Source of the DNA: Dehalococcoidia bacterium
Lineage (GTDB): Bacteria > Chloroflexota > Dehalococcoidia > Lucifugimonadales > QGNO01
Direction: 5' to 3'
Assembly: GCA_965197965.1 (NCBI GenBank)
Contig: OZ240235.1
Location: 549,820 to 613,819, forward strand
DNA: 64,000 nt
This document shows, one piece after another, positions 27,843-64,000 of the stretch (within the stretch, counting starts at the first letter, position 1; every line of letters begins with the position of its first letter). The notes beneath the pieces were generated by a model, which worked only from the letters and a program-made list of their open reading frames with translations, had not been told where the DNA came from and did no database searches. The position numbers and the translations under genes were made by a program.

Positions 27843-28913
27843 TCAATTCCCCGACGCGTCGTGGCGCCAGCCCGAGCCGAACGTCATCCCACCGTCGCTG
27901 ACTACCCAAACGCGCACGTCCTCCGTGGTCACCCAGTTGCCCTCTGCGGTGGCCTTGAACATATCCGTGCCGAGCAAGTCTTTGAGGTCCCTTCCCACCA
28001 TGCCTTTGTCGTAGTGGTCTACGATCGTACCGCTATCGTCCGCTATGAACGCGAACCAATCCCCTTCAACGTTCTCGGCACTGTTGTAGTACTCGATGGC
28101 CGCTGTCAGTCCGGCAAAATCGCTCTGCGGGCTGTTGAAGTATGCGATGGTCCCTTCCAGTCCTACCGAGCGGAACACGAGGACGGCGGCTGCCACAAAG
28201 GACTTGGTGAACTCGTCGGCGATGATGTACCAGCCGGAGGCGAACAGCAGCCCGTCGTGCCTCACCACCCAAGCGTTCTTGAGCTGCAACGTGCCGGTGT
28301 GGTCGTCCCCGATGCCGCCGCTCTCCGGGTTCCTGAACACGTAGGACACCCACTTGCCGTCCTCGGTGGCCGACAGCATGTCCGGCCCGAAGTTGTACCC
28401 GTTGGCGTCGGTCCCGACCCAGCCATTCACGTCCAGCCCCAGGCGCTGGGATTCGGGATGCCCGATGACCGCATCGTTCTCGTCTATGATGAACACGTAC
28501 CACTGGCCGTCGATGCTCTCTGGGCGGTTGTAGTAGGCGAGGGTGGCGTCGAGTCCCTGGGTCTCATACCTGCTGATGGCCTTCTCTACGAAGAACTTGG
28601 TGTACTCGGCAGGAGCGGACTTGGGCGGTACGGAGGCGACGACGCTGCGGGCGATGCGCTCGGCTTCGGCGGCGGTGACTCCGGGTTGCGCCGTGGGGAC
28701 CAAGGCGATGGCCGATTCGACTATCCGTTCGACCTCGGCGCGGGTGAGCCCGCGTTCCGACTGGGGCGTCGCAGGCGCTTCGGCCATCTCCGTGCGCACT
28801 ATCTCCTCGACCTCGGCCCGGGACAGCCCCGCGTCCTCGCCGCAGCCAACCAGGAGGAGGGTGATCAGCACGGCTGGCGCCGCCCATGAAAATGCTACCC
28901 TGGTGTTCTTCAT
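27843..28913 (-). CDS. Lipoprotein with tandem Cache-like sensory domains
   Basis: 356 aa with the lipobox LLLVGC. It has three short LxRAEVExIV repeats. Two segments have the Cache-type pattern (QWYVFIIDENDAVIGHPE... and DWFAFIADDSGTIVDHYD...). The stop is TGA. Confidence 0.65.
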   Translation of the reverse strand: MKNTRVAFSWAAPAVLITLLLVGCGEDAGLSRAEVEEIVRTEMAEAPATPQSERGLTRAEVERIVESAIALVPTAQPGVTAAEAERIARSVVASVPPKSAPAEYTKFFVEKAISRYETQGLDATLAYYNRPESIDGQWYVFIIDENDAVIGHPESQRLGLDVNGWVGTDANGYNFGPDMLSATEDGKWVSYVFRNPESGGIGDDHTGTLQLKNAWVVRHDGLLFASGWYIIADEFTKSFVAAAVLVFRSVGLEGTIAYFNSPQSDFAGLTAAIEYYNSAENVEGDWFAFIADDSGTIVDHYDKGMVGRDLKDLLGTDMFKATAEGNWVTTEDVRVWVVSDGGMTFGSGWRHDASGN

Positions 28914-28937
28914 GTCAATTGCTGGCTCCCTTGAACA

Positions 28938-29891
28938 TTAGAGACCTCCGATGTCGGCACTCCCATCGACCACGAAGTTGGAGTCTTCGGCAACTGCGTC
29001 GTGAGTTAGAACGGCGTCGTTTCCAGCGGCGTCCTTGATGACGCCGCCGTTCAAGCTCACTGCGTTCGCGCCGACGGCAACCCCATCACTGTCCGAGTCG
29101 TCGCTCAGTACCGTATAGCCAAACACCAGCCGGACTCCTCGGACTCCGGGGTTGAAGGCGCAGAAAGCAATCCCGAATTGGTTTGGCTCACATTTGGGCA
29201 CGGCGTAGTCGAAGTCAGCCAATTTGGCCGTACCCTCAAAGTCCAGTTCCAGATGGGGTGTGCCAGTGGCGACTACGTCTTCGCTGAACACCGCGTCAGT
29301 AACGAGCTTTTCTCCGGCGGTGTAGACGCCATCTCTTCCTCCGGTACTTGAGACGAAGGAGACGGACGATATGGTGGGGCGAACCCCGTCCACCTTGTGG
29401 CCCGTCTGGACGGCCAGTGCACCATGGGACAGGTCGGCTGCGTTGTCGGCGGCGTCCTTGATGGTGCCCCCGTTCAGCGTCAGCTTGTTGGCGCCTATGG
29501 CGATTCCGTCGTCGTCCGAGACGCCCTCTGCCACCGTGTAGCTGAAGACCACATTGGTAGTTGTGACGCTCTCGTAGGCAGCAGCTTTGCCGCTCCCGCC
29601 GATTTCCAGTTCGAGCTGGGGCGAGCCTGTAACGGTAATGTTCTCGCTGAACGTCACCGTTACCTTGATACTGTCGCCGATCCCGTAGACGCCATCATCA
29701 TCGAAGGATGAGTCGTCATCACCAGTGTCGCTGGTGATGGCAACGGACGAGATGGTTGGAGCCGTCGTGTCGGTCTGAGCCGACACCGAGGGTAGACCGT
29801 CGAATGCGAACAGTCCGATGATTCCCATGAGCGCTCCAACCACAAGCGCCCATGCCAGTTTCCCTCTAACCGTTCCAATCTCTATGGCCAT
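28938..29891 (-). CDS. Membrane-anchored/secreted protein with two ~115-aa Ig-like surface repeats
   Basis: 317 aa with an N-terminal hydrophobic anchor. The repeats run (A/R)PTISSV...P(Q/H)LEL...(F)(S/G)YTV...DSDG(I/V)A(I/V)GAN...LNGG(T/V)IKDAA(D/G)N. It ends ...ADIGGL. By my count the stop triplet sits 1 nt left of the track coordinate; I kept the track coordinates. Confidence 0.6.
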   Translation of the reverse strand: MAIEIGTVRGKLAWALVVGALMGIIGLFAFDGLPSVSAQTDTTAPTISSVAITSDTGDDDSSFDDDGVYGIGDSIKVTVTFSENITVTGSPQLELEIGGSGKAAAYESVTTTNVVFSYTVAEGVSDDDGIAIGANKLTLNGGTIKDAADNAADLSHGALAVQTGHKVDGVRPTISSVSFVSSTGGRDGVYTAGEKLVTDAVFSEDVVATGTPHLELDFEGTAKLADFDYAVPKCEPNQFGIAFCAFNPGVRGVRLVFGYTVLSDDSDSDGVAVGANAVSLNGGVIKDAAGNDAVLTHDAVAEDSNFVVDGSADIGGL

Positions 29892-29952
29892 CTTGTTCCT
29901 CTCTCTGGAGATTTGGGAGCCTTCCCTTGGGTTCGCTCCGAGGGTTTAGTCG

Positions 29953-31905
29953 TCATAGCCCTCCCATCACCACTGCCGTCGTACTCTCGCTGGTCAGCAA
30001 CTCAAAATTGCCGGCGTCGTCTGAGAACCGGACCCGCACCTTCATGACCTTGCCGTTGTCGGAAGCCTGGAGCGTGTATGTGGAACTCGTCGCCCCGTCG
30101 ATTTCCGTGTCGTCAGCCAGCCACTGGTATCTGTAGGACACGTTGTCCAGGCCGTCGGCGTCGGAGATTCCATCCGTGCTTGCCGTCAGGGTTTGTCCCA
30201 CCTGCGGCGTTCCACTGATGGTGGGGGCACCCGTGGCGGGGGAGTTGGAGACCTGCTGCTGTTCCACCACGCGGGCAGGTGTTGCCGTGACTTCAGTAGA
30301 TGGGTCACCATCGCCAACACCGTTCGCCGCGATGACCCGCACAGTATAAGAGACGCCGTTGGTCAAACCTGTGATGATATGTGAAGTTGCGGTGACCGTT
30401 TCCTCAGAGACGTCGTCCGGAGTTTCCCAGCTGTCCGAATCTTCCTTCCACTGCACTTTGTACCCGGTGATTGCCGTGCCGCCGTTGGAACGAGGCATTT
30501 CCCAGGACAGGGCAAGTTGAGCGTCACCAGGAGTGGCCGTCAGGTCATACGGGAACCGCGGCGAGTTAAAGACTAAGCCGAACCAGCGGTACCGCCTCGT
30601 CTCCATACCAAACCGTATCCCACCGGCGGCGTCACTGTCCTGGACCGCGGCGGACAGCAAGCCGACCTTGCCGTTGAACTGTATTTCACCGGCGAAGATT
30701 GGGGTCGCCGTAATCACTCCACTCGAAGTGTCTCCGGCGTTGAGGGTGACCGTCGTGCTGGACAGCGTAACTCTCTCGCCCCAAAGGGTGACTTCCAGGT
30801 TGGATGGAGCGGGTTTACTGAGGGTGACCTCCCAGGCAAAGGTATAGAACTCCTCGGCATCGCGCGATTCCAAACTTACCTCGATAGCGGTTACCGCCAT
30901 CTCTGTGACTTCAGCCGACGCTGCGTTGTCACCGTTCTGGTTGAATGCCAGCACTCGCACCGTGTAGGCGACGCCATCGGTCAAATCTGTGATGGTGTGC
31001 GACATTCCGGTCACTGTAGCCTCGGACACGTCGTCCGGAGTTACCCAGCTGCCCGAATCCTCCTTCCACTGCGCTTTGTATCCTTGTATCGGAGAACCGC
31101 CGTCGCTGGCAGGCGCTTCCCAGGACACGGCAAGTTCCTGGCTTTCACCCGAAGAGACCTTCAGGTTCCGAGGCGCGTCCTCCGCTGTGGTCGCCACTAC
31201 CGCAGTCGCAGCGCTCGTGAGCGTTTCGTTGTTGTCGGCGTCGTCGGTGAAGTTCACCTGCACCTTGATGGTCTTTCCCATGTCTTCGTCGGACAGCGTG
31301 TATGTGGCCTCCAACATGCCCCAAATGTCTATGTCCCCGACCCCCCGCGCGCCCGGAATGTCTGTGTCTTCAACCCCGTCGTTGGATATCCACTGATAGA
31401 TAAGGAAGAATCGGCTGTACCCCTCTTCGTCCTCGATGTCCGACATGGAGACTGTGAGTGTCTGCCCTGCCTGTGCTACTCCAATGATGACAGGCGCGCC
31501 CGTCGCGGGCGTGTTCGCAGCGCGGGTCACCGTCACGGTGTACGTCTGTGTGGTGTTCCCGTCTTCGGCGGTTACTTCTACTGTGATGACGTTGCTACCT
31601 ACACTCAGTGAAACGGTGCCATCCGTGTCTTCAACTCCGCCGAGCTTTGTGACGTAGCTGGCCCCTGAGTGGCTCACGGTGGGAGTGACGGTGGTCTGTT
31701 TCACGCCATTGGCGACGCTGGCAGTGTAAGAAGTGGTGCCTGATGCGAATGTGGCCAAGTCCACGTCACTCAGCGTCAGGTCACTGAGCGTGGCGTCGCT
31801 GCTCTGGCCCTCGGCCAGGACCGTATGGGTGAGGAAGACCAACCCCACCGCGAGGGCAATGAGCAAGATTCGAACAGTTAGGCTGATTCGCTTTGTTGTG
31901 CCCAT
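29953..31905 (-). CDS. Secreted protein: cadherin-like beta-sandwich + 2 FN3 + 2 'YQW' modules
   Basis: 650 aa with a signal peptide. ATLSDLTLSDVDL...TTQTYTVTVTR is a cadherin-like beta-sandwich pattern. Two FN3-like units are present (SWE(A/M)P...GG..I.GYK.QWKEDS.SW...YTVRV.A.N). Two ~88-aa YQW modules are present. It ends AVVMGGL-TGA. Confidence 0.75.
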   Translation of the reverse strand: MGTTKRISLTVRILLIALAVGLVFLTHTVLAEGQSSDATLSDLTLSDVDLATFASGTTSYTASVANGVKQTTVTPTVSHSGASYVTKLGGVEDTDGTVSLSVGSNVITVEVTAEDGNTTQTYTVTVTRAANTPATGAPVIIGVAQAGQTLTVSMSDIEDEEGYSRFFLIYQWISNDGVEDTDIPGARGVGDIDIWGMLEATYTLSDEDMGKTIKVQVNFTDDADNNETLTSAATAVVATTAEDAPRNLKVSSGESQELAVSWEAPASDGGSPIQGYKAQWKEDSGSWVTPDDVSEATVTGMSHTITDLTDGVAYTVRVLAFNQNGDNAASAEVTEMAVTAIEVSLESRDAEEFYTFAWEVTLSKPAPSNLEVTLWGERVTLSSTTVTLNAGDTSSGVITATPIFAGEIQFNGKVGLLSAAVQDSDAAGGIRFGMETRRYRWFGLVFNSPRFPYDLTATPGDAQLALSWEMPRSNGGTAITGYKVQWKEDSDSWETPDDVSEETVTATSHIITGLTNGVSYTVRVIAANGVGDGDPSTEVTATPARVVEQQQVSNSPATGAPTISGTPQVGQTLTASTDGISDADGLDNVSYRYQWLADDTEIDGATSSTYTLQASDNGKVMKVRVRFSDDAGNFELLTSESTTAVVMGGL

Positions 31906-31918
31906 ATCTAGTCTCCTT

Positions 31919-33232
31919 CTACAGGCCTCCCACGAGCGTCAGGTCACTGCCGGCGACTATCTCAAGACCTATGAGCCTGGTCCCACTCTTAGCAACCGAA
32001 TCGACGCTGACCGTGACCGTGCCGGAGGCCGTCACGGTGATGGTCTCGCTCTCCAAGGCGCCGCGAGCGATTGTGACAGTCTCGGCGGAAAGCGTGCCTC
32101 CTATGGCCGAAAGGGTTACCGACAACGAAGACGGCGCTCCCTGGTCGATACTGACGACCACACCGGCGCCTTTCTTTTCCAACTCCGCGGTGATGGTGAA
32201 CGGCGCCCCGGGGTTTTGGTCGAATTCCACGCTATCCAGATTTCCGAGGCCTTCGAACACGCCTGCGGGCAATGTTGATATCTGGTTATGACTCATGACT
32301 AAGGAATTCAAATCGCCCAGACCCTCGAACGCGCCTGAGGGCAACGCCGTGATTTTGTTGTTGAATAGGGTCAGTTGCTGCAGTTCGCCAAGGTCGCCGA
32401 ATACGCCCGAGGGCAACGCCGTGAGCTCGTTCCTGCTCAGGTACAACCACGTCAAATTGCCGAGGCCGTCGAACACCCCCTCGGGCAACGCGGTGATCTT
32501 GTTCTGGTGCAGGTTCAGGGCCATCAGGTTGGTGAGCCCGTCGAACACCTCCTCCGGCAATGCAGCGACCGAATTCCTGGGGAGCTCCAGTGAGTTGAGG
32601 CTAGTTAGCCCATCGAACACTTCCTCCGGGAGCGCGCTGACCTTGTTGGCGGTGAATGTGAGATCCTTCAGGTTGGTCAGGCCATCGAATATTTCCTCAG
32701 GCAGCGCCGTAAGACCGTTCTGGTACAGCTTCAGGTTCTGTAGGTTGGTCAGGCCGTCGAACAGGTTCTCCGGGAGCGAGCTCACCTCGGTGAAGGTCAG
32801 GTTCAGGCGTTTGAGTTCGGTGAGTCCGGAGAAGATGTCCTCGGGCAGCGAGGTGATCTGGTTGTCGTCCAGTTTCAGTTCCTGCAACCCGCTGAGACCG
32901 GCGAAGTCCCCGGACTTGAGGGAGGTCACCCCCATATTGGACAGAGCAAGCGTCCCGCTTATCCCTGACAGGTTGGCGTCGGTGACGTCCCCGCAGGCGG
33001 TAACGTCTGACAGCTTGGCAAGGATGGCGTCCTGGACCTTCTGGGTGCGGCCGCAGATACCCGGCGTGGGAGTGGGAGAGGGTGTGGGGGTAACGGCTTG
33101 CGCCAGGGCCATGCCGTGATTCGTGGGGAGGGCGAGACCTGCCGCCAGTGCGGCAGCGACCGCAAGAGCCGCGAGCAGGATAGCTGCACGCTTCAAGCTG
33201 ACCCAGCTCGTCAATACGGTCAATCTGCTCAT
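31919..33232 (-). CDS. Secreted leucine-rich-repeat (LRR) protein
   Basis: 437 aa with a signal peptide. It has the Cys-containing cap GICGRTQKVQDAILAKLSDVTACGDVTDANLSGIS and about 11 LRRs (L..L.L..N.(I/L)(T/S)(S/A)LPE..F.GL). The C-terminal beta-rich cap is NPGAPFTITAELEKKG.... It ends LTLVGGL-TAG. Confidence 0.8.
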   Translation of the reverse strand: MSRLTVLTSWVSLKRAAILLAALAVAAALAAGLALPTNHGMALAQAVTPTPSPTPTPGICGRTQKVQDAILAKLSDVTACGDVTDANLSGISGTLALSNMGVTSLKSGDFAGLSGLQELKLDDNQITSLPEDIFSGLTELKRLNLTFTEVSSLPENLFDGLTNLQNLKLYQNGLTALPEEIFDGLTNLKDLTFTANKVSALPEEVFDGLTSLNSLELPRNSVAALPEEVFDGLTNLMALNLHQNKITALPEGVFDGLGNLTWLYLSRNELTALPSGVFGDLGELQQLTLFNNKITALPSGAFEGLGDLNSLVMSHNQISTLPAGVFEGLGNLDSVEFDQNPGAPFTITAELEKKGAGVVVSIDQGAPSSLSVTLSAIGGTLSAETVTIARGALESETITVTASGTVTVSVDSVAKSGTRLIGLEIVAGSDLTLVGGL

Positions 33233-33272
33233 CGATTCTCCTGAATGTCAGGCCGATGCAATTGGCAGCTCC

Positions 33273-34415
33273 CTACAACCCGCCCATAACCACCGCCGTG
33301 GTTCCCTCGCTTGTCAGCGATTCTTCGTAGCCCGCGTCGTCCGTGAAGCTCACTCGCACCTTGATGACCTTGCCGTTGTCCGATGACTGGAGCGTGTAGG
33401 TGGAGCTCGTAGCCCCATCGATTTCGGTGTCCCTGCTCGACAGCCACTGGTAGCTGTAGGACACGTTGTCCAAGCCGTCAGCGTCAGAGATTTCAGACGT
33501 GTCTGCTGTCAAAGTCTGTCCCACCTGCGCCGTTCCGCTGATTGTCGGCGCACCAGTGGCGGAGGAGTTCTGAACGGTAACCGTCAGGTAGTACAGGTGG
33601 CCTGCGCCGTTGTTTACGTTTCCTGTATTGATGCCGATGCCAAGCCGGTTTTCGCCCCGGCCCAGATTAATCTGAAAGCCATTTGTGTCGTCGTCGGCAT
33701 CGTTGAGGACGATACCGGTAGTGGTCCCGTTCCCGTAGGAGTAGTTGCAGGTTCCTTGCAACGGTCCACCCCAGCAACCTGAGATTACTCCCCAGATCGG
33801 GTTCTTGACGAAGACGGTAAAGTAGCCGGTCAAGACGGTGGATTCCAAGGTGATGGATTCAGTATCGGTGGGGACTTCAGCGTCATATCGATTTATTCCC
33901 CTATCAAAGGAAGGGTTCAGAGTTCCAGAACTGATGGTCAGCGCCGTCAGTGGCGCCGACGAGTAAGTGCCTTCCCTGAGATTGAACGCCCCCATGGCAA
34001 TTTGAGTTGAGGAAACGAGGTTGTTCGCTTCGTTTTCGCCGCAGTACAGTTCCACTTCGACTTTCGGAAGTCTGGTAACGCCGCTCGGACTAAGGGGGAT
34101 TTCATGGGAGATTGCCTTGGTTGCCTCATTGCTGCCGGAGGCCACTGAGCCGAGGTGGGTGCGGGACGTCTCCGCGTCGTTGCTAGGGGGTCTGACCGCC
34201 AGGTAGAGGTTGTAATCGGATGAGCAGTTGTCCGGATCTGACCAGGAGACGGTGTCATCGGCGTCAGTTATCACAACCGTGATGTACGCTTCGGGGTCAG
34301 ACCCGCTCTGAGCGGCAACGTGAGAGGGACTACCCGACACCACAAGAGTCAGCCCTAACACGGCCCCAATGAGGGCCACCACTATCGGAATGCCTGCTCG
34401 ATTCACTATGTTCAT
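33273..34415 (-). CDS. Secreted protein: unknown N-domain + cadherin-like beta-sandwich + C-terminal YQW module
   Basis: 380 aa with a signal peptide. LTALTISSGTLNPSFDRGINRYDAEVPTDTESITLE is present. The C-terminus ATGAPTISGTAQVGQTLTADTSEISDADGLDNVSYSYQW...KVIKVRVSFTDDAGYEESLTSEGTTAVVMGGL is followed by TAG. Confidence 0.65.
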   Translation of the reverse strand: MNIVNRAGIPIVVALIGAVLGLTLVVSGSPSHVAAQSGSDPEAYITVVITDADDTVSWSDPDNCSSDYNLYLAVRPPSNDAETSRTHLGSVASGSNEATKAISHEIPLSPSGVTRLPKVEVELYCGENEANNLVSSTQIAMGAFNLREGTYSSAPLTALTISSGTLNPSFDRGINRYDAEVPTDTESITLESTVLTGYFTVFVKNPIWGVISGCWGGPLQGTCNYSYGNGTTTGIVLNDADDDTNGFQINLGRGENRLGIGINTGNVNNGAGHLYYLTVTVQNSSATGAPTISGTAQVGQTLTADTSEISDADGLDNVSYSYQWLSSRDTEIDGATSSTYTLQSSDNGKVIKVRVSFTDDAGYEESLTSEGTTAVVMGGL

Positions 34416-34474
34416 CTCGCCTCTCTCCTATCTCAGGTTTGATCTTCGGACAGACGTCTGCCTGGTTCCGATTC

Positions 34475-36442: not shown

Positions 36443-36536
36443 AGCTCGGCCTTTGCGTCGGGAACAGGTCCTCCGGTAGAACTACGCTTACCTTGAGTGC
36501 CAGCCTTAAGCTCCGCCTGTCATCTGATCGGTATTG

Positions 36537-36660
36537 CCCATATAAACACTAGAGCCCCTTCATCGTTTTGGTAAGTGCTTAATCACACTCTTAGGACGGC
36601 AAAAGTGTTAGCTCTGAGAGAGAGTGTTTCTGCAACTTTTCGCTCTTGCTGACATAGACG
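36537..36660. repeat. Conserved intergenic cassette, copy A (short form)
   Basis: CCCATATAAACACTAGAGCCCCTTCATCG(T/A)TTTGGTAAGTGCTTAATCACACT...GTTAGCT...AGAGAGTGT(G)TTTCTGCAACTTTT(T/C)GCTCTTGCTGACATAGACG is shared with copies at 46304, 51098 and 62260. It lies ~95 nt upstream of the 34475..36442 start. The minus-strand promoter candidate is TTACCA (36574-36569), 17 nt, then TAGTGT (36551-36546). Confidence 0.8.
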
Positions 36661-36790
36661 CGACCGGGAGATGCCGCTGCCCTCTCCCCCGGCCATCCGC
36701 ATACGCGGGCATTTCTTGTTGCCCGGAAAGACAAGCGCTATGCACCGCCCGATCTATCTTTTAGGCCCGGAACCCTCTATAGCGACGGGA

Positions 36791-47056: not shown

Positions 47057-47130
47057 GGACAAGTAGTACCGGGGAGAGACGGGAGGCAGGCATCGCAATC
47101 AGGGAGTTCATACGTGGCCCAGGCCTGACC

Positions 47131-51041: not shown

Positions 51042-51097
51042 AGCAAGGCAGGACTGCCCCACGAGAAATAACCGCCGGACATCCCTGGCAGCAGCCT

Positions 51098-51191: not shown

Positions 51192-51329
51192 ATCGTTCAG
51201 GCCCTGGCCGACGTCCCTCGCCCATGCTAAGACAGGCTCTGTTAGCCGCAGTTTCTCAGCTCCGCTCGCTGCCCAGGCACGGTAATCGTCAAGCTTTGCC
51301 CGGGGCGTTCTCAAGTCGCTCGGTGATGA

Positions 51330-52322: not shown

Positions 52323-52361
52323 TTTGTCCTCCTTTTTGCCTGCGTTACGCCTCTGCCCCCA

Positions 52362-58300: not shown

Positions 58301-61300
58301 CGACCTGAAACTTGTCCCCGTCGTCGGTGGACTCCACGGACCAAGTCTGCGTATCCGGCACGTCGACGTCCAACGCCATAAGGAGGATAGTTCCGCTGGA
58401 GTTCTCGGGCACGTTGGGTGCATCCAAAAGGTTCGTGATCTCCGGCGCCTCGTTGACGTTGGTCAGGTTGATGGTCACCGCGATGGTGTCGTCGGTGGCG
58501 GTGTTGGCGTTGCCGGCGGCGTCCTTGCTGTCGCGCACGCTCACGGTCACGCTGTAGCTCTTCTTCGAGGACTCGAAGTTGAAGGTGTGCGTGGACCCGG
58601 TCTTGACCTTGATCTGGCCGTCCGAGTCGATCTCGAAGCGAGCTGCGTCCGCGCCGGTCAGCGAGTAGGTCAGCGTGTCCGAGTCGCCGTCCGTGGCCGT
58701 GATCACGCCCCCGACGACGTCCACCCCGGCGCCGCTGTTCTCCGGCAGGGTGCGCGTGGCCGTCTCCGCGCTGAACTCCGGCTCGGCGTTGCCGGCGCCC
58801 ACCGCGCTGCTCGACACCGCGCTGGCAGTCTTGCCCGAACCCTGGGGATCTGTGTAGGTCACCGTGGCCCGCAGGTACTTGCCCACGTCCGCGGCGACCG
58901 GCGTGTAGCCGGCGGTGATGGCCCCGCTGATATCGTTGAACGACCCGGTGGCCGTGCTCCCCCTCGCCCATCGCCACGAAGCGCCGGAGACGGTCCCGTC
59001 AAGGTCGCTCACCGATGCCGTGGCCGCCGTACCCCCGGTGAACGTGGCCGGCAGCGTCACCGTCCCGGCCTCGTCCAGGTTGTTGACGGAGATGGTGACG
59101 GCAATCGTGGCGTCGACGGTGGTGTCGGCCACGCCGACGGCGTTCTTGCCGTCGTGCACGGTCACGTTCACCGAGTAGCTGCTATCGGTCTCAAAGTCCA
59201 GGGAGGCGCTCGTCTTCAGCTGGCCGCTGGCCGTGTCGATGGTGAAGGATGACGCGTCCGTGCCGGTCAGCCCGTAGACCAGCGTATCGCTTTCGGGGTC
59301 GGTGGCCGCGACGGCAGCGCCGATGTCGGCGGCCGAGGCTGTGTTCTCGTCCACGCTGCGCGTCGTGGGCGCGGTGTCGGTGAACTCCGGCGGGTTGTTG
59401 ACCACCTCCAGCAGGTAGACGACGGTCTCCTCGCCTACGGTCCACTCGACGTCCTCGGCGACGGCCGGCCAGAGCAAGAACATTTGGCCCCCAGCCTTGT
59501 TTATTGAGATGTCGTCGTCCGACACAAGCCACTCGCGGCCCGTGTCGACGATCCACGCCTCCTCTTCGTTAGCGCCCGGAATCGGGCTCATGGTGATAGC
59601 GAGTCCGGTGCTCGGGACAGGGCCGAAATCTATTTGGTCGAACGCGTAGGTGTCCGAACCGTAGGTGAACGACGAGGGGCTGAGGGAACCGTCAGTGCCG
59701 GCGGTGTTTACGCCGATCGCGCCGAAGCCGCGGTCCGCGGGCGTGAGCGTTCCCACCCAGAGCAGCTTCCGCGTGGCGCCGGAGGCGACCACCTCGTGGG
59801 TCTCGGCGCTGGTCAGCGACTCCGAGTAGCCCTCGACGTCGGTAAACGTCACCGTGAGGCTGATGGCGTCTCTCACCTCGGATGCCGTGAGCGTGTAGGT
59901 CGATGAGGTCGCGCCGGATATGGCCGTGCCGTCGGCGAGCCACTGGTAGGAGAGCGTGCCCAGGCCGTCGGCGTCGGCGATGCCCGCGGTGTCCGCCGTC
60001 AGGACCTCGTCCTGCTGAAGCACGCCGCTGATGGAGGGCGCGCCGGTGGCGAAGTTGTTGTCGGCGTCAGTGCCCTTGACCTCAATGAGGAGGGGACGCA
60101 TGTTGCTGAACCACCGACCTGGATTGGAAGACACAGGACCCTGACGCTGCGTGTGGCCATCTCCGATGGACCAGCCCGCCGCGCCGCCGGGGTCCTCTGC
60201 GTCGTTGTCGGTTGCGGACAGGTAAGTGAATGTCCTCGAGTCGTTCTTGAGGAGAACCCAATAGGTGGTGCCCGCATGAAGCGTGGGGCAGGTTGTGCCC
60301 ATGGTTGGGGCGGCAAATGCGTGCAGCCCGGAGCCGCCGAAGGTCGCCGGGTTGGCCAGGCTACACAGCTCGGCACTGTCGCCGTCCGCGTTCAGCGTCG
60401 CGCTGATACGGTTGGCGGCTGGCGAGAGGTTGTTCGCGGTGCTGAAGAAGTGAACGCCGATCGAGTCCAGGGTATAGCCGCCGGTGTTCGCGCCGGTTGT
60501 GAATCCCTGGGCAATTAGGTCAGGGCTTTGCGAATCAAAATCCTCGCCGGAACTCCTGCGGGTCTGCCTCGTGTTCCTGACCAGGACGTCGGCCGGGACA
60601 ATGGTGTCGGACAGTGCGCTGGAGAGCGGCCCCTCGGCGTTGGTGAGGTCGTCGGTGAAGGTGACGTCCACCCTGATCCGCCTCTCCGCGTCGTCGTCCA
60701 TGAGGGTGTAGGTGGAGGAGTCCGTGCCGATGTTGGTGGTGCTGCCGCCGACGACGCGGACCCACTGGTAGGTGAATGTCGCGGAGGTCGTCCCGTCGTC
60801 GTCCATGATGGCCGAGGTGTCCGCGGTGAGCTCCTCGCCCACGCGCGGAGTGCCGGTGATTGTCGGCGCGCCGGTGGCCGGGTTGTTGATTGCGTAGCCC
60901 CTGACGGCCAGCTGGTGGTTAAAATTGGCGTTTGCTACCCACGCGGCCCCGGGGTTCACAACCACATAGCTGCTATCCCCGATTGTCCAGCCCGTCGCGC
61001 CGCCGGTGTCCTCGCCGTCCGCGGCAGTAACGTCCAAAGACATCGTGGATGTTGCGGTGTTCGCCACCCGCTGAACCACCGCAAAGTAGGTCTTGTTCGC
61101 CTCCAGCGTTGGGCACGAGTCCGTGGTCGACGCGTCGAAGGTCTGCACGCCCGAGCCGGAGAAGGTCCCCGGGTCGATCAGCGTGCACAGCGCAGCGTCC
61201 GGATTGGTGCTGCTGTCCACCCCGTTCAGCGTCACAGCCAGGTCGCCGCCGGCTGTCGAGGTGCTGGCGATGCCGCCGAAGCTGAAGCCGATGGAGCCCA

Positions 61301-62072
61301 GCGTGTATCCGGCGGGGTTGGCGCCGGTGGTGAACGCCTGGGCACGCTTGGAGTTGCCACCGACGCCCAGACCGTAGTCACCGCTGTCGGTTTGCCCCGT
61401 GTTCTTGATCAGGACGGGTGGGACTATCACGGAGCCCTTGACCTCGATCAGGAGGGCCGCTGCCTCTTCTGACCATTCCATGCCATCATAGGTGAAGGCC
61501 AAGCCGTCCACTTCCCAGCCCGCCGCAGCGCCGGAGTCCTCGGCAGCGCTAATGGTTTGGTCGACAGCGATTGCGCCTGTATTGGTGTTCGCCCGCTCGA
61601 TGACAGCGAAGTAGAGCGTTTCCGGCAGAAGCGTGGGGCACGGGTCCGTGGTTGGCACATCGAAGGTTTGCACGCCTGAGCCGGAGAAGGTCCCCGGGTC
61701 GGTGAGCGTGCACAGCGGACTGTTTGGCGCGTCGACGGAGTAAGTCTCATCAAAGGTCGCGTCGTAAAGCTTGACCGTCAGCTCGGCCCCTGCCGTCGTG
61801 GTGTCGCCGATGGTCCGGAATCTGATGCCGATGGAGCTCAGCGTGTAGCCGGAGGCGTGGGCGCCGGTGGTGAATCCCTGGGCTTGGCCGGGGAACGAGG
61901 CGTTAATCAAACCACTTGTACCAGTGGCGGCCTGCCCCGTGTTCTTGACCAGGACGGTGGCCGTCTGCGCCTGGACCGTCGATGACCAGAGGAGCACGCC
62001 GCCCAGGGCCAGCAGGGCGAGCAGTGCGATGAGCACCCGGGGGAGCGGCGCAAAGCGCCGGGAGGTGGTCAT
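52362..62072 (-). CDS. Giant secreted cadherin-repeat protein (3236 aa)
   Basis: The signal peptide is MTTSRRFAPLPRVLIALLALLALGGVLLWSSTVQAQ.
- Four ~190-aa N-terminal repeats (NTGQ...AQ(G/A)FTTG...GYTL.SIG..F...LCTL.DPGTFSGSGVQTFD) at ~59600-61960.
- Two YQW modules.
- About 16 cadherin-type repeats with (T)V(T)(N/D)VNE.P linkers, interleaved with 5 'W(Q/R)WARS' ~95-aa modules, at ~52900-59400.
- A Gly14 run (52833-52874).
- A C-terminal EF-hand/dockerin-like segment YDFNRNGTIEKDEVLAAVSDYFAG. Confidence 0.85.
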   Translation of the reverse strand: MTTSRRFAPLPRVLIALLALLALGGVLLWSSTVQAQTATVLVKNTGQAATGTSGLINASFPGQAQGFTTGAHASGYTLSSIGIRFRTIGDTTTAGAELTVKLYDATFDETYSVDAPNSPLCTLTDPGTFSGSGVQTFDVPTTDPCPTLLPETLYFAVIERANTNTGAIAVDQTISAAEDSGAAAGWEVDGLAFTYDGMEWSEEAAALLIEVKGSVIVPPVLIKNTGQTDSGDYGLGVGGNSKRAQAFTTGANPAGYTLGSIGFSFGGIASTSTAGGDLAVTLNGVDSSTNPDAALCTLIDPGTFSGSGVQTFDASTTDSCPTLEANKTYFAVVQRVANTATSTMSLDVTAADGEDTGGATGWTIGDSSYVVVNPGAAWVANANFNHQLAVRGYAINNPATGAPTITGTPRVGEELTADTSAIMDDDGTTSATFTYQWVRVVGGSTTNIGTDSSTYTLMDDDAERRIRVDVTFTDDLTNAEGPLSSALSDTIVPADVLVRNTRQTRRSSGEDFDSQSPDLIAQGFTTGANTGGYTLDSIGVHFFSTANNLSPAANRISATLNADGDSAELCSLANPATFGGSGLHAFAAPTMGTTCPTLHAGTTYWVLLKNDSRTFTYLSATDNDAEDPGGAAGWSIGDGHTQRQGPVSSNPGRWFSNMRPLLIEVKGTDADNNFATGAPSISGVLQQDEVLTADTAGIADADGLGTLSYQWLADGTAISGATSSTYTLTASEVRDAISLTVTFTDVEGYSESLTSAETHEVVASGATRKLLWVGTLTPADRGFGAIGVNTAGTDGSLSPSSFTYGSDTYAFDQIDFGPVPSTGLAITMSPIPGANEEEAWIVDTGREWLVSDDDISINKAGGQMFLLWPAVAEDVEWTVGEETVVYLLEVVNNPPEFTDTAPTTRSVDENTASAADIGAAVAATDPESDTLVYGLTGTDASSFTIDTASGQLKTSASLDFETDSSYSVNVTVHDGKNAVGVADTTVDATIAVTISVNNLDEAGTVTLPATFTGGTAATASVSDLDGTVSGASWRWARGSTATGSFNDISGAITAGYTPVAADVGKYLRATVTYTDPQGSGKTASAVSSSAVGAGNAEPEFSAETATRTLPENSGAGVDVVGGVITATDGDSDTLTYSLTGADAARFEIDSDGQIKVKTGSTHTFNFESSKKSYSVTVSVRDSKDAAGNANTATDDTIAVTINLTNVNEAPEITNLLDAPNVPENSSGTILLMALDVDVPDTQTWSVESTDDGDKFQVASDFLTMLSFKDQPDFETPTDVGDTAMNNTYVVKVKLTDSGGLSDTLTFTVTVTNVNEAPEITTNSGAAHILSEAENTATSVVIETFEATDVDASTTLTWSLEGADAGDFRITTNPQGQGELKFRNVPDFEDPKGSVDGNIYVLVVRVRDNGSPRKEDTIGVNVHVTDVNEEPVITSPPATRSVPENSTAVHTFAATDVDASDTLTWSVETADDGGKFDIDSTTGALTFKNAPDFETPTDVGSTAMNNTYVVTVKVTDAGGLPDTHEVTVTVTNVNEPPKITTLEVTDTSFDVAENTATSVVIKTYEAADPDANSVLTWDLHGDDAGDFTITKNADGHGELEFRNVPNFEMPVDDDTDNAYDVTVRVRDAGGLGTTLMVQVTVTDVNETPVVSGDNSPDFAEIEYDVLDADLTAANYIIATYSATDDDNSDNANLQTITWDVSGDDAAHFTIDSSSGVLSFSIRPDFENAVDMGSSNTYEIVVEADDGQGESNSVGTFTVTVTVTNVDETPEITTTDASHTAPSFMEIEYDAMTAVLTIADYDGRDEEGQTITWSRTGTDAADFTIDSSTGVLSFAQRPNFPNFEMPADAGTDNVYNVTVRARDTASNTRELEVVVTVTDVNERPDIDENFNAPQNYMEIEYDFTGTPDNVHTFTAEDYDVGDTIGWALVGTDAAYLEIDPTTGVLTFTQDSGFGQGPLPNFEHPRDDDVGDGSSNTYSITVRAFDDATDKKTTDYAVVITVTDVNEVPEFTGTPETAITLDEHDANTNYVVMDLADYDAEDEEVGVTWSRTGTDRRDFAISADGVLTFVKTPNYEAPEDSGGDNVYEFNVVATDVRSGSSRRNVSVAVTVTVGDVEEDGTLEVENLSPAAGETVTFRLTDPDGSIDTSSMTWAIQSKATGGSWARVSGVLTPASTTFPWVVDEDVTGKAIRAMVTYTDRRGSGKTALSRETAEVTADPIVNAPPRFRGDSSWSVEEGPAGGAVGAPTHATDRDNDTLTYGIQSGGDSAYFEIDPSTGQVRLAQALDFETTPGPLFFYLTLHDGKGVDANNAEIDDSSIDATRSATISVVDVEEDGVVTLSTDEPETGMPLTATLEDGDGVVTGEIWQWARSENGRTGWTNISGATSSSYTPTVADEDFFLRATVTYTDRRGAGKSAEAVTDDPVPSENRRPRFPSTETGQRTVPENSRAGANIGAPVAADDSENDSLTYTLTGSDAAAFTIVETTGQIRVKDDLDYETKPSYSFTIEVHDGRDGSGATSTTIDDTQAVTITVENVEEPGTITLTTDTQSIQARVEVTAALEDDDIPSGVTWQWSRSPNGRTDWVNIQGATLAAYTPTLEEDRGNYIRATASYTDGHGPNKTANAVSARVGDPPPVNSEPVFPSTEDGRREVEENSAEDSAVGTPVAATDLNAGDSAVNDPLAYSLSGTDVASFTIDSSTGQISLAAGAQLDYEDKRTYRVTVEVTDGRDQNGDDDMDAIDDSQNVTITVTNVNEAPEVTGDATVSYQEDANRAIATYTGTDPERDTLTWSVSSDDFWISQRGQLYFRTPPSYETQTSYQVTVTATDDDVTTPLSGTLDVTVTVTDAEEEGAVVITPPRGWVNVLTEFMAVLTDDDGGVTGETWQWARSPNGRSSWTDIAGETSSSYTVTADDANQYLRASASYEDRRGSNKTASAVLSSPVGDTRPAANTAPEFTETAPVTRKVSAGTASGRNVGSRVRATDADQGDVLTYSLSGTDGDAFDIDAATGQIRTKDVLEHDPDPDGDNTYEVMVSVHDGFDGGYNESSASDATIEVTITVTAASSARPPQGGGGGGGGGGGGGGVTVPEVDPPSFAEGSSTTRLLPASARPGDAVGKPLVATHPTYSGFTYLLSGTDSTKFTVDESTGQIRVGQEVSLEEGDTYDVTLRASVARVGGSTITVEIGVSIRVTEPEPPAIRYDFNRNGTIEKDEVLAAVSDYFAGLIEKNDVLALVARYFAV

Positions 62073-62300
62073 GACCTACCCCCGGCTAGCCGAGTCCAAA
62101 AATCGGGGGCTGACAGGGGTATTGCCGTCACCGTTAAAGCGTCTCTTACGTTTCCGTTCGGCATCTTTACGTCGTCAGGTGAAACCTTGGGCTAACCACT
62201 CGCCAGCTTGAGACCCCCGTATGCAATCACTGTCCTATCGCAGAGTGGCAGCCTGAGGGTCCGCTTATCGTATGGTCTTCTTACGCATCCACCCATATAA

Positions 62301-62329
62301 ACAGTAGAGCCCCTTCATCGATTTGGTAA
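62301..62329 (-). promoter_or_regulatory. Candidate leftward promoter for the 3236-aa gene
   Basis: On the minus strand: TTACCA (62329-62324), a 17-nt spacer, then TACTGT (62306-62301). The same geometry is conserved in copies A and B (-10 TAGTGT). It would give a ~230-nt 5' UTR. Confidence 0.3.
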
Positions 62330-62400
62330 GTGCTTAATCACACTGTCGCGGCAGCAATTTTGTTAGCTTTTAGAGAGTGTGTTTCTGCAACTTTTTGCTC

Positions 62401-62429
62401 TTGTGGACACAAACAAAAGTGGCTAGATT
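62401..62429 (+). promoter_or_regulatory. Candidate rightward promoter for the kinase/regulator operon
   Basis: TTGTGG (62401-62406), a 17-nt spacer, then TAGATT (62424-62429). The -10 and spacing are conserved in copies B and C (-35 TTGCTA / TTGCTG). About 250 nt of leader precede ATG 62681. Confidence 0.35.
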
Positions 62430-62680
62430 AGTAGCATCTTCACACCGTCGTGACCGCCAAACACTCCTTGGTCTCACGCGCAAACCGGAGAGGAGATGTC
62501 TCAGCCACATTGCCTAAGCCGGGGCCTGCGTCCAATCAGAGCAGCCGCCAGCGTCTTTGGCATGAGCGTCGAGCCGCTCATCCGCCTCAGACTCGGACTG
62601 GCTGGGATGCACCGCTATTCCCGCTGGGGGCAGGTCGGCGCCAGGGTTAGGTTGGGTGTTGGAAGAGGGGCCTGTACTTT

Positions 62681-63892
62681 ATGAAGACATCGATGGGCGC
62701 AATACAGACGCGGCTTCTCCAGATGCTCTGGCTCGACCCGGACGAGGCATCGTACGCCGCCAATATCACGGTGTGGCTACGCTGGCTCTTCTGGGTCGGC
62801 GCCGTGATCGAGCTTGCCTATCGACCGGCGTTCACGCATGCCAAGTACATTCCGTTCATGCTCATGCACGTGCCGCTGGTCGCGCTCAACGGCTATGTGC
62901 ACTACCGTCTGCTCTCCCGGCGCAGGGTGACGTGGCGTCACCTGCTCCTCCTCAGCGCCATGGACATAGCCCTGATCACGGCCAGCGTCGTCGTCGATGG
63001 TGGTTTCGACACCTTCCTCTACATCCCCTACTATCCCGCCCTTGCCGCCTTTGCCGCCATCTTCACCTCCGCTCTGCTGAATCTCACCTGGACTACGATC
63101 ACAGCCTCCACATACGTCGGCGTGAGCTTGATCATGGGCATGGGCTTCGATGGGATCAATGAGAAGATGCTGTTCTCCAGGGTGCTCGCGATGTTTGGGG
63201 TTGTCCTGGCTGTCAACTTCATCACCCGGTTTCAACGGCGCAGGGCGAGAGCGGCGATGGAACGGGAGCGGGAGCTGCAACGGGAACGGATCGAGCTCTC
63301 TCAGACGATTCACGATACGGTCGCCCAGACCGCCTTCATGATCGGCCTGGGGATAGACGCGGCCAAGCAGGTTGCCGGAGACTCGAACGAGGAGCTCACC
63401 GCCAGGCTCGATGCGACCTCACGGCTTTCCAAGATCTCCGTCTGGCAGTTGAGACACTCGATAGACATGGGCCGCATCTTCGAGGGTAGTGAGCTGGGCT
63501 GGACCCTGGACTCGCACGTTGCGACGTTCAGGACCATCACGTCGGTGTCGGCGGAGCTGACTCAGAACGGGGCGGAGCCGCCACTTTCGATGGAGGCTAA
63601 GAGTCTCCTGTTCTCCATAGCCCACAACGCCCTCGCCAACGCCTTTCGCCATGCCTGGGCGAGCCGGGTGCTGGTCGAGCTCGACTTCGGACGGGATGAG
63701 CTCAGGTTGTCGGTGTCGGACGACGGGGCGGGGCTTCCCGACGACTACGAGGAGCGCGGCCACGGCTTCGCAAATATGCGGGCGTACGCCGAACGTCTGG
63801 GCGGACGGCTTATCGTCGAGCCCAGGGGACCGGACGGGGGCGCGAGCGTGACCTGCCTGATGCCATTGTCTCGCGATAGAAAGGAGGGATAG
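62681..63892 (+). CDS. Sensor histidine kinase, HisKA_3 (NarX/LiaS-like) type, polytopic N-terminal domain
   Basis: 403 aa with ~5-6 hydrophobic segments. The H-box is LSQTIHDTVAQTAF. The ATPase motifs are HNALANAFRHA, SVSDDGAGLP and GHGFANMRAYAERLGGRL. Confidence 0.85.
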   Translation: MKTSMGAIQTRLLQMLWLDPDEASYAANITVWLRWLFWVGAVIELAYRPAFTHAKYIPFMLMHVPLVALNGYVHYRLLSRRRVTWRHLLLLSAMDIALITASVVVDGGFDTFLYIPYYPALAAFAAIFTSALLNLTWTTITASTYVGVSLIMGMGFDGINEKMLFSRVLAMFGVVLAVNFITRFQRRRARAAMERERELQRERIELSQTIHDTVAQTAFMIGLGIDAAKQVAGDSNEELTARLDATSRLSKISVWQLRHSIDMGRIFEGSELGWTLDSHVATFRTITSVSAELTQNGAEPPLSMEAKSLLFSIAHNALANAFRHAWASRVLVELDFGRDELRLSVSDDGAGLPDDYEERGHGFANMRAYAERLGGRLIVEPRGPDGGASVTCLMPLSRDRKEG

Positions 63893-63893
63893 G

Positions 63894-64000
63894 TTGCCAA
63901 CGGAATCTCGTCGCATAAGGGTGCTGCTGGCCGACGACCATGCGGTCACGCGGGAAGGTCTTCAGGTGATGCTGGAGCGGTCTGGGGAGTTCGAGGTGGT
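63894..64000 (+). CDS. Response regulator, NarL/LuxR-type receiver domain (5' part; runs off the right edge)
   Basis: The TTG at 63894 is preceded by AAGGAGGG. It reads (M)PTESRRIRVLLADDHAVTREGLQVMLERSGEFEVV, a typical REC N-terminus paired with HisKA_3 kinases. Confidence 0.75.
   Translation, partial: MPTESRRIRVLLADDHAVTREGLQVMLERSGEFEV

Follow-up and report, generated by a model that had tools for sequence, protein, structure and literature searches.

Sponge symbionts are rich in animal-like adhesion and repeat proteins, and how these proteins reach, stay at, and are controlled at the host interface is the question on which the locus described here bears. Among sponge symbionts, genes for leucine-rich repeat (LRR), cadherin, and fibronectin type III (FN3) proteins are enriched and subject to lateral transfer (PMC8163846), and proteins of these kinds have been noted in sponge Chloroflexi, where sponge SAR202 bins are without peptidoglycan synthesis genes (PMC6306507). 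Secretion systems are found in few sponge-symbiont lineages, and how the proteins get to the host is left open (PMC8163846). According to the same paper, which cites its references 10 and 73 on this point, eukaryote-like repeat proteins of sponge symbionts reportedly let Escherichia coli evade phagocytosis, and free-living bacteria, too, have cadherin, FN3, and immunoglobulin (Ig)-like domains in their adhesins and carbohydrate-active proteins (PMC8163846). Here we analyze a 64,000-nucleotide (nt) stretch of contig OZ240235.1 (positions 549,820–613,819, forward strand) in assembly GCA_965197965.1 of a Dehalococcoidia bacterium, hereafter the window, about 34 kb of which is taken up by genes for exported, adhesin-type proteins beside a two-component system. 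Our reading, which we hold to be somewhat probable, is that this locus is a co-regulated surface-display regulon of sponge-type SAR202/Dehalococcoidia, in which C-terminal address labels and membrane tethers would serve a peptidoglycan-less cell. An earlier note on this DNA had proposed a co-regulated surface-display or adhesion regulon and is borne out in part, but it had missed the x-Gly-Gly-[Leu/Val]-stop tails, the adjacent Cache lipoprotein, and the pairing of an EF-hand-like end with a membrane anchor.

Organization of the locus and its relatives

Nine minus-strand open reading frames (ORFs) between positions 27843 and 62072 make up the locus, all nine where the earlier note had placed them, and each product is predicted to carry the signal peptide claimed for it, read by eye as a basic region and a hydrophobic N terminus followed by an Ala-x-Ala or Ala-Gln-type site. 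Six genes (27843–36442) form an operon, with measured gaps of 24, 61, 13, 40, and 59 nt that agree with the 13 to 61 nt reported before. The first of them (34475–36442) encodes a 655-amino acid (aa) protein with two Cys-capped LRR blocks and a terminal YQW module, and is followed by genes for a 380-aa protein with a weak Cadherin-like match and a terminal YQW module (33273–34415), a 437-aa LRR protein with a Cys-capped head, ≈10 LRRs, and a C-terminal sandwich (31919–33232), a 650-aa protein that combines a Cadherin-like sandwich, a YQW Ig module, two FN3 domains, and a terminal YQW module (29953–31905), a 317-aa protein of two ≈140-aa β-sandwich-type repeats, the homologs of which are annotated DUF4625/Big_12 (28938–29891), and last a tandem-Cache lipoprotein (27843–28913). 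The domains of the 655-, 380-, and 650-aa proteins were assigned with Pfam together with a hidden Markov model (HMM) of the YQW module, and those of the 437-aa protein with Pfam together with repeat families. An exported giant of 3061 aa (36791–45976) and an exported cadherin giant of 3236 aa (52362–62072), both assigned with Pfam and the YQW HMM, and a 276-aa membrane anchor (51492–52322), the gene of which begins 39 nt after that of the 3236-aa protein, exactly as had been noted, complete the set. The earlier picture of three units sharing one promoter cassette, with a single intact copy, proved too simple, as the cassette is present in four copies, one of them an orphan and two (copies 2 and 4) lying in a segmental duplication.

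A genome scan with the 317-aa protein, for which an exact look-up found no identical sequence, placed the closest loci, at 83 to 90% identity, in Dehalococcoidia metagenome-assembled genomes (MAGs) and more distant ones in a "SAR202 cluster bacterium" bin, Caldilineaceae, Poribacteria, Latescibacterota, and Ca. Poriferisodalis, a combination typical of sponge microbiomes. Distant homologs of the domain of the 317-aa protein in Paenibacillus, Massilia, and Leptolyngbya have the Ig-like domain only, without tail and Cache neighbor. Loci of relatives are labeled L001 onward; L001 to L006 and L083 are the cassette-bearing ones, and L002 and L083 together correspond to contig OZ240219.1. The host-adhesion reading of the earlier note gains support from the nearest relatives (Dehalococcoidia/SAR202 MAGs, which the scan returned along with Poribacteria, Latescibacterota, and Ca. 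Poriferisodalis) and from the literature (PMC8163846, PMC6306507).

A conserved Gly-Gly-Leu/Val tail and a tandem-Cache lipoprotein

In five of the six operon products, Gly-Gly-Leu directly precedes the stop codon regardless of the last domain: AVVMGGL in the 655-, 380-, and 650-aa proteins, LTLVGGL in the 437-aa protein, and SADIGGL in the 317-aa protein. The tail occurs after four different terminal domains, with a linker of variable length and a variable residue before Gly-Gly; the lipoprotein is the sole operon product that lacks it. The 317-aa protein has 435 homologs, and among the best 120 of these, 46 end in GGL and eight in GGV, most of the others appearing truncated or frameshifted. 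In a tripeptide census of 1957 ORFs of at least 150 aa in 81 loci, GGL (42 occurrences) ranks first and GGV (15) third among all C-terminal tripeptides, which amounts to 57 occurrences versus ≈2.7 expected (P ≈ 1e-54). The Gly, Leu/Val, and stop codons differ synonymously and the downstream DNA differs, whereas the peptide end and the position of the stop are fixed; such a fixed peptide in the face of codon variation indicates purifying selection on the tail.

Two other accounts of the tail were set aside. A by-product of copied DNA is ruled out because codons and flanking DNA differ while the peptide end stays, and a tripartite sorting signal (LPXTG, PEP-CTERM, or GlyGly-CTERM) is ruled out because neither a transmembrane (TM) helix nor a basic tail follows the motif. 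NCBIfam sorting models gave no match for the tailed proteins, which stop right after G-G-L.

The lipoprotein encoded last in the operon has the lipobox LLVGC, the Cys of which (Cys24) is invariant in 40 homologs and would place the protein outside the membrane. It consists of a helical stalk of ≈20-aa repeats, of variable length (356–575 aa), followed by two PAS/Cache-like domains. Pfam Cache scores fall just below their cut-offs (sCache_3_2, 26.6 versus 28.4; dCache_2, 23.4 versus 26.5; sCache_2, 22.8 versus 25), and many homologs carry precomputed Cache matches. An AlphaFold2 (AF2) model shows a helix and then a five- to six-stranded sheet, twice over, in a PAS-like arrangement, and the top Foldseek matches of this model are dCache/sCache ligand-binding domains of the amino acid- or carboxylate-binding kind, with a probability of ≈1. 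The family is large, with more than 1300 matches, and is better conserved than its neighbors.

Tail and lipoprotein go together. Of the 33 loci that have a Cache homolog, ≈31 carry a GG[LV] tail on the gene just before it, Latescibacterota (≈60% identity) among them. In loci without the lipoprotein the Ig-like homolog is untailed in 47 cases out of 48, and the one exception keeps a 59-residue Cache fragment. Fisher's exact test of this co-occurrence gives 7e-19 for loci that are not phylogenetically independent. As a check of the prediction, three loci (L086–L088) were reached through a different, ≈500-aa Cache subfamily; all three have an ORF ending in …SAPGGL-stop 61 nt upstream of the Cache gene, and two to four further neighbors end in GGL (once in GGM).

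The pair of tailed protein and Cache lipoprotein from Ca. Latescibacterota is found on MAG contigs of 4.5 and 1.3 Mb (L071 and L072). Its presence in more than one phylum suggests, to judge by the sequences, lateral transfer among sponge symbionts.

An EF-hand-like C terminus and a membrane anchor

The 3236-aa cadherin giant ends differently, in YDFNRNGTIEKDEVLAAVSDYFAGLIEKNDVLALVARYFAV, which forms an EF-hand-type Ca loop with accompanying helices. At a Pfam threshold of E ≤ 10, the C-terminal 62 aa match EF-hand families only (E ≈ 0.004), and a profile of this module searched against the PDB returned single EF-hand loops. The protein encoded next, the 276-aa anchor, comprises a signal peptide, a β-sandwich (aa 33–145), a (PEPEPTAT)n linker, a TM helix (aa 250–275), and the terminal sequence RRRRR. 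Its ectodomain is modeled as a β-sandwich with a predicted local distance difference test (pLDDT) score above 90, and the fold matches include two cohesins, 2xdh and 6kgd_A, at ranks 5 and 9 (TM-score, 0.46–0.49), among BslA, YcnI, reeler, and Ig domains. The anchor's own C terminus stays below the cut-offs of LPXTG_anchor (15.7 versus 15.9) and GlyGly_CTERM (7.9 versus 15.5) and has no LPXTG motif.

Homologs of the anchor lie 39 to 40 nt after a giant gene in all three loci where they were found, behind a conserved AGGAGGAC site. The giants that precede them differ in body, being of cadherin or LRR type, and keep in their last ≈40 residues the pattern YDLNxNGxxExxEVLxAxxDYFAGxIxK....YF. By analogy, this pair follows a cohesin–dockerin-like logic, although membership in those families is not established; dockerin membership of the 3236-aa C terminus was in fact ruled out, as it has neither a duplicated segment nor a Dockerin_1 match.

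The linker of the anchor is encoded by a 24-nt tandem repeat (51583–51918; 10 overlapping 120-nt copies, ≈14 units). Many database homologs of the anchor (P0261, P0265, P0267, and P0274) are frameshifted within this repeat and end in Arg/Pro-rich nonsense, which probably reflects assembly errors.

A noncoding cassette heads the units

Four copies of the cassette, all on the minus strand, were located by repeat search and core pattern, and a 35-nt core with three free positions matches four times in the window versus not at all in 100 shuffles. Copy 1 (36521–36679) lies upstream of the operon, its core ending 79 nt before the ATG, and is a chimera in which the upstream flank, with hairpin CCGGGGGAGAGGGCAGCGGCATCTCCCGG, is of the type found after a giant gene and the downstream leader is of the operon type. 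Copy 2 (46321–46479), upstream of a gene remnant and the 3061-aa gene, is part of the segmental duplicate of the copy-4 region. Copy 3 (51038–51196) is followed by no gene and keeps its upstream block up to GTGTGAT, where the stop codon of an MMPL gene on the plus strand cuts it off. In copy 4 (62276–62434), 204 nt separate the end of the core from the ATG of the 3236-aa gene, and a conserved spacer of 246 nt lies between this copy and the divergent kinase gene.

The cassette recurs at 72 to 88% identity (blastn) in L001 to L006 and L083, always on the gene strand, with two to three copies per 20 kb in L001 to L006. The 655-aa gene has its ortholog as the first gene after the cassette in L001 to L005, and OZ240219.1 has a copy before each of the operon, a PPDK_N gene, an LRR/GSDH giant, and a cadherin giant. 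An alignment of the copies reveals invariant blocks amid variable flanks, split by a 12-nt indel; these blocks are GCCACTTTCG..TATG, CAAGAGCGAAAAGTTGCAGAAACAC, AGCTAACAAA, AAGTGTGATTAGGCACTTACCAAA, and CTCTAGTGTTTTCATGG, with AAAAGTTGCAGAAACAC and GTGTGATTAGGCACTTACC as further invariant strings. The cassette postulated in the earlier note is thus real, but the label "promoter" did not hold up in the same way, since no sigma-70 consensus, Rfam match, or conserved fold was found for it. From its position and conservation, the cassette is probably a shared, activator-dependent control region. Co-regulation of the units, as had been proposed, receives indirect support from the conservation of the cassette before every unit and from the two-component pair that stays beside the core genes. 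Because the order of the units differs between the window and OZ240219.1 and copy 1 is chimeric, the cassette copies also appear to be recombination breakpoints.

Several other identities for the cassette were considered and rejected. A structured RNA or riboswitch is ruled out by the Rfam scan of the window, which returned two tRNAs only, and by the lack of a conserved fold in an alifold analysis of 14 copies (−11.5 kcal/mol over 260 columns), and a plain sigma-70 promoter is ruled out by a consensus scan. A 5-bp inverted repeat, AAGTG-N8-CACTT, was not used as a regulator site, its arms being too short to exceed chance. A metagenome scan with GTGTGATTADRCACTTACCAAA returned one contig (L082), without related genes and unrelated, and an approximate-match search of four conserved blocks in the 81 loci found nothing above the shuffled-pattern level beyond L001 to L006.

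Two side observations concern the cassette and its leader. The leaders after the core (36443–36520 and 62073–62275) fall into an operon type, with …GCAATACCGATCAGATGACAGGCGGAGCTTAAGG…, and a giant-gene type, with …GTAGATGCGTAAGAAGAACCA…GCGGAATCACAGG…, each kept across genomes. The core also contains a four-codon mini-ORF (ATG-AAG/CAG-GGN-CTC-TAG).

A two-component system keeps to the core genes

The plus-strand gene at 62681–63892 encodes the sensor histidine kinase recognized earlier, with HisKA_3 (PF07730, E = 3e-8) and HATPase_c (PF02518, E = 2.5e-11) domains that both score above their cut-offs, preceded by a hydrophobic multipass N-terminal half and no large outside domain. It is followed on the same strand by the 5′ end of a NarL/LuxR-type response regulator gene (63894–64000), which starts with TTG after AAAGGAGG and runs off the window after 35 codons; the positional ortholog in L001, beside a 91%-identical kinase, has Response_reg and GerE domains. 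Kinase orthologs are 87 to 91% identical in L001 to L005, where the pair is divergent from and directly beside the cassette of the operon. The divergent junction of cassette and kinase described in the earlier note is therefore found in the window, at copy 4, but in relatives the neighbor of the kinase is the multigene operon and not the cadherin giant; the kinase of the window faces the cadherin giant because the units have been reordered.

In more distant loci the pair persists in other arrangements. In L027 and L021 the kinase is only ≈48 to 50% identical, and the pair follows closely on the lipoprotein gene, from the same strand in L027 and in convergent orientation in L021; a HisKA_3/GerE pair adjoins the tailed-protein/Cache locus in L086 to L088. 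Overall, 15 of the 33 Cache loci have a kinase/regulator pair no more than 10 kb from the Cache gene, and a neighborhood kept through rearrangement argues for a functional link with the core genes.

Domain content of the exported proteins

The LRR, cadherin, FN3, and propeller domains named in the earlier note were all recovered by Pfam, as LRR_8 (E = 2e-68 and 5e-38), Cadherin (11 repeats, 8e-102) and Cadherin-like, fn3 (two domains, 3e-32), and GSDH, and the locus proteins thus carry the animal-typical LRR, cadherin, and FN3 domains. The ≈90-aa YQW module, Ig-like by weak ZirU, AIR9, and SCAB-Ig matches, was found by its HMM in 15 copies in five proteins, and the Cys-capped LRR head occurs four times as a repeat family in the window. 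The notion that all nine proteins draw on one shared domain vocabulary fails for two of them, the tandem-Cache lipoprotein and the TM anchor. The 3061-aa giant contains ≈45-aa WxDG..MWV repeats, six YQW modules, and a Cys-capped LRR and ends in a Cys-pair domain terminating in SGPGQ; it is 90% identical over aa 1 to 1839 to its L005 counterpart and has a 3120-aa ortholog with an identical domain set in OZ240219.1. The 3236-aa giant contains the 11 cadherin repeats and five YQW-type modules.

Some features of the giants stand apart from this adhesin-type content. A full-length GSDH propeller (glucose/sorbosone dehydrogenase-type; E = 4.5e-66) occupies aa 1364 to 1695 of the 3061-aa protein (40892–41887), between LRR and Ig-like modules, and a PPDK_N domain (PEP-synthase/PPDK-type ATP-grasp; E = 7e-28) occupies aa 2230 to 2524 (38405–39289). 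The latter keeps the RSS..ED.P..S.AG motif and is without swivel-His or PEP-binding domains; it is encoded by a separate gene with its own signal peptide in L001 (12605–17279) and is also found in L088 (7801–13383). An ATP-grasp domain in an exported adhesin is an odd location, outside the cell. The 3236-aa protein has a run of 14 glycines (PPQGGGGGGGGGGGGGGVTVPE) at aa ≈3066 to 3079 (window ≈52850–52900), between the last cadherin-type repeats and the C-terminal region. The signal peptides of the giants (N termini at 45976 and 62072, and L001 at 12605) have M-T-x-S-R-R-x-A-P-L-P in common, and several small tailed proteins of L086 to L088 have T-D-R-R-R-F-P-x-L-I-A-A in common; both motifs resemble twin-arginine motifs, and export of 3000-aa proteins by the twin-arginine translocation route seems unlikely.

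Duplications, remnants, and surroundings

Copies 2 and 4 of the cassette lie in a segmental duplication with 89% identity over 279 + 245 nt that extends ≈65 codons into the 5′ end of the kinase gene. Because the duplication took in this 5′ end, a kinase pseudogene fragment was left on the plus strand at 46763–46957, with a DNA identity of 89% to the start of the gene at 62681. The fragment is oriented divergently to cassette copy 2, and its similarity to the kinase ends after …MLMHVP, where it is fused to unrelated sequence before an ORF for an α/β hydrolase (46855–48267, plus strand; Pfam). This ORF and the next, for an MMPL/RND (HAE3-type) transporter (48423–51041, plus strand; Pfam), are missing from orthologous loci, and the block (46855–51041) is probably not part of the system. 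A second remnant, on the minus strand at 45990–46257, stands for the last ≈90 codons of an upstream gene and is 268 nt of the Cys-pair C-terminal domain, 94% identical in DNA to 36799–37066; it has neither a start codon nor a signal peptide of its own, and its stop codon overlaps the start of the 3061-aa gene (ATGA). L005 has an identical layout (15192–15473), and L001 and L004 carry a full-length gene at this upstream position; the remnant may have been kept in two genomes by preserving translational coupling or a leader. Transposase, recombinase, and restriction-type genes are found at the edges of adhesin loci in relatives (L001, 243–2230; L084, 11660–17356; L085, 12403–18188; L086, 11022–13593; L087, 11043–13590), in line with frequent rearrangement.

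The left half of the window is ordinary chromosome, with purine, thiolase, CoA-transferase, and ABC-transporter genes and two tRNAs. One of these, tRNA-Gly(TCC) at 24814–24888, lies ≈3 kb from the end of the locus, with no convincing gene in between, and may mark an island boundary. Just past the end of the operon lies the 3′ fragment of another MMPL-type gene (27091–27507, plus strand; …VGRWNWW), overlapped by a 102-aa ORF with a helix-turn-helix-like stretch (27479–27787, minus strand). This ORF has 47 to 48% tblastx matches in L007, where it lies ≈1.5 kb downstream of the lipoprotein gene, and in L008, and its region has DNA-level matches in L041, ≈90 nt past the lipoprotein gene, and in L015, which has no Cache gene. 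The giant genes have a G+C content of 63 to 67% (40001–46000 and 52001–62000) versus 55 to 60% elsewhere in the window, which could reflect amino acid composition (Gly/Ala/Asp/Thr-rich repeats) or foreign origin.

Discussion

On the reading that we favor, each unit would consist of a ≈160-nt control cassette, one or more Sec-exported adhesin-type proteins, and a last gene for a membrane-tethered protein, which is in fact present at the end of two of the three units, the 3061-aa unit having none. Short C-terminal labels would each fit the tether that their own unit encodes. The x-Gly-Gly-Leu/Val-COOH ends would be held by the tandem-Cache lipoprotein, the small-ligand pockets of which would take the free Leu/Val carboxylate noncovalently, and the EF-hand-like, Ca-binding end of the cadherin giant would dock in a Ca-dependent manner on the β-sandwich of the 276-aa anchor. 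Since SAR202 sponge symbionts are without peptidoglycan genes, such receptor-type tethering would replace wall sorting. Transpeptidation that removes the last residue of the tail, by analogy with D-Ala-D-Ala or NGL-type ligase substrates, is less likely than a noncovalent clamp by Cache pockets. The HisKA_3 kinase, of the intramembrane type, and the NarL-type regulator would switch on all units jointly through the cassette, and cassette copies and repeated modules would act as recombination substrates that reshuffle units between genomes, so that a changeable set of adhesins would be displayed toward the sponge matrix or cells. That GG[LV]-COOH and the Cache lipoprotein form an undescribed C-terminal anchoring or processing system, laterally acquired by other sponge symbionts, with the EF-hand-like end and anchor as a second address system and cassette and two-component system as the common switch, we offer tentatively, as a possibility rather than an expectation.

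Several observations weigh against parts of this reading. Cache domains are classic sensors, and a co-sensor role for the lipoprotein fits equally well; the Cache model itself is moderately confident (pLDDT, 62.8), with TM-scores to its PDB matches of 0.2 to 0.5. The links between tail and Cache lipoprotein and between EF-hand-like end and anchor are drawn entirely from gene neighborhood, and, as the loci share ancestry, the Fisher test overstates their independence. Dockerin_1 gave no match in the C-terminal 62 aa of the 3236-aa protein (Pfam, E ≤ 10), the sandwich of the anchor fits BslA, YcnI, reeler, and Ig domains no less well than cohesins, and the Cys-pair end of the 3061-aa protein is a third type of C terminus, without a paired tether. 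Sigma-70 hexamers (TTGACA/TATAAT-like, 16- to 18-nt spacing) gave no sites in 36400–36850 and 62000–62750, the regions of copies 1 and 4, and a candidate promoter in the cassette, TTACCA-N17-TAGTGT, agrees with the consensus at 7 of 12 positions only. The cassette is recognizable in one close clade, so that binding of the regulator is without support from deep conservation; copy 3 is an orphan, and copy 2 is parted from its gene by the gene remnant. Finally, a sponge origin of the window is suggested by its relatives.

The strongest rival concerns the lipoprotein, which may instead be an outside co-sensor of the HisKA_3 kinase, the tail then being a C-terminal protease site, a signal for passage of the surface layer, or a protection or quality-control signal. 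Lipoprotein co-sensors are known (NlpE/CpxA and RcsF/RcsC), the fold is that of sensor ligand-binding domains, the kinase is without a large outside domain, and the pair recurs near the Cache gene, adjoins it in L086 to L088, and persists through rearrangements. The Cache gene is, however, tied more tightly to the tailed genes, at 24 to 61 nt in essentially all loci, than to the kinase; the long, variable stalk would keep the Cache domains off the membrane, an awkward position for contact with the short outside loops of the kinase; and the strict co-occurrence of tail and lipoprotein is left unexplained. We give this account a minority chance, and the tether and co-sensor roles could coexist. 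The proteins might also be released into the sponge mesohyl and serve there as matrix components or soluble effectors, such as decoys for pattern-recognition or phagocytosis receptors, with the membrane proteins as unrelated passengers: seven of the nine have no membrane anchor of their own, the LRR proteins match secreted effectors at the family level only, and evasion of phagocytosis by E. coli with symbiont repeat proteins has been reported, as cited in PMC8163846 from its references 10 and 73. We regard this as unlikely, for a membrane-tethered gene is kept at the end of the operon and 39 to 40 nt after EF-hand-ended giants, and conserved C-terminal labels would otherwise lack an explanation.

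The two remaining alternatives touch the cassette and the target. Were the cassette merely a repeat spread by segmental duplication, either young or a recombination site, the units would be regulated separately; the duplication of copies 2 and 4 with the kinase 5′ end, the orphan and chimeric states of copies 3 and 1, the breakpoints of unit order at cassettes between the window and OZ240219.1, and the lack of a promoter consensus would all fit. Position, strand, and distance to the start codon are nevertheless kept in at least six genomes in which the proteins have diverged to 66 to 95% identity, and invariant blocks amid variable flanks are the pattern expected of a functional element, which makes the repeat-only account, in our estimate, quite improbable. 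Least probable, and only a slim chance in our view, is attachment to nonliving particles, other bacteria (in a biofilm), or polymers in a free-living lifestyle rather than to an animal host. Domains of the cadherin, FN3, and Ig-like kinds do occur in free-living bacteria, as noted above, and the homologs from Paenibacillus, Massilia, and Leptolyngbya are of this sort; however, these free-living matches have the Ig-like domain alone, and the full module of tail and Cache lipoprotein was found in Dehalococcoidia and Latescibacterota MAGs only, in a scan that also returned sponge-named lineages.

For the question of how symbiont proteins reach and stay at the host interface, the locus offers several handles: putative Sec signal peptides, two C-terminal labels each with a candidate tether, and one control element beside a sensor pair. 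If Gly-Gly-Leu/Cache anchoring is true, it would be a new way of displaying proteins on a wall-less bacterial cell, and tail plus signal peptide would be a simple mark by which to find the host-facing proteins of uncultured symbionts. Otherwise, the locus remains a well-resolved case of modular, recombining adhesin units.

Comparison with known systems

The dCache and sCache domains of chemoreceptors and kinases (PctA/B/C, Mlp24/37, CtaA, TlpB, and PscD) match the fold of the lipoprotein, and in such domains binding goes through the carboxylate group of the ligand, which is an amino acid or a small carboxylate. In contrast to those transducers, the domains here are unfused and predicted to be lipid-anchored on a repeat stalk, with their gene inside an adhesin operon. 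Sorting by LPXTG/sortase, PEP-CTERM/exosortase, PGF-CTERM/archaeosortase, and GlyGly-CTERM/rhombosortase is alike in placing a short C-terminal motif on varied exported proteins of one lineage. Those signals combine a motif with a TM helix and a basic tail, whereas the proteins described here end at G-G-L/V with a free carboxylate; in the conserved neighborhood no sortase-like gene was seen, and the Cache lipoprotein is present there. The cellulosomal cohesin–dockerin system is alike in pairing a C-terminal, Ca-binding helical module with an anchored β-sandwich and a Pro/Thr linker, and the 276-aa protein has the linker and cell-surface anchor of such a partner; here, however, there is one EF-hand loop rather than a duplicated dockerin segment, and the sandwich matches unrelated Ig-like folds equally. 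BvgAS of Bordetella is a two-component-controlled adhesin regulon with a NarL/LuxR-type regulator, and regulons of this type resemble the present locus in having a HisKA_3-type kinase and a GerE-type regulator beside adhesin genes and a common upstream element. In the present locus, by contrast, the kinase belongs to the intramembrane type and lacks a periplasmic domain, and its link to the cassette through the regulator is a prediction.

The nearest relatives are the eukaryote-like proteins of sponge symbionts (LRR, cadherin, FN3, ankyrin, and TPR), which share domain families and lineages (Chloroflexota/SAR202, Latescibacterota, and Poribacteria) with this locus and show similar signs of lateral exchange, exemplified here by a Cache lipoprotein 60% identical between phyla. 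The literature treats these proteins as gene counts per genome, whereas here they are seen in cassette-headed units with a two-component neighbor, C-terminal labels, and tethers; and while symbiont lineages mostly lack secretion systems (PMC8163846), the proteins of this locus would leave the cell on plain Sec-type signal peptides. No description of tail, cassette, or tether pairs was found in the open-access papers searched. The statement of the earlier note that no system of this architecture has been described is accordingly to be divided: sponge-symbiont adhesins of the eukaryote-like kind are a well-known class, and their organization here, in cassette-headed units with a sensor pair and two proposed label–tether pairs, is absent from the papers searched.

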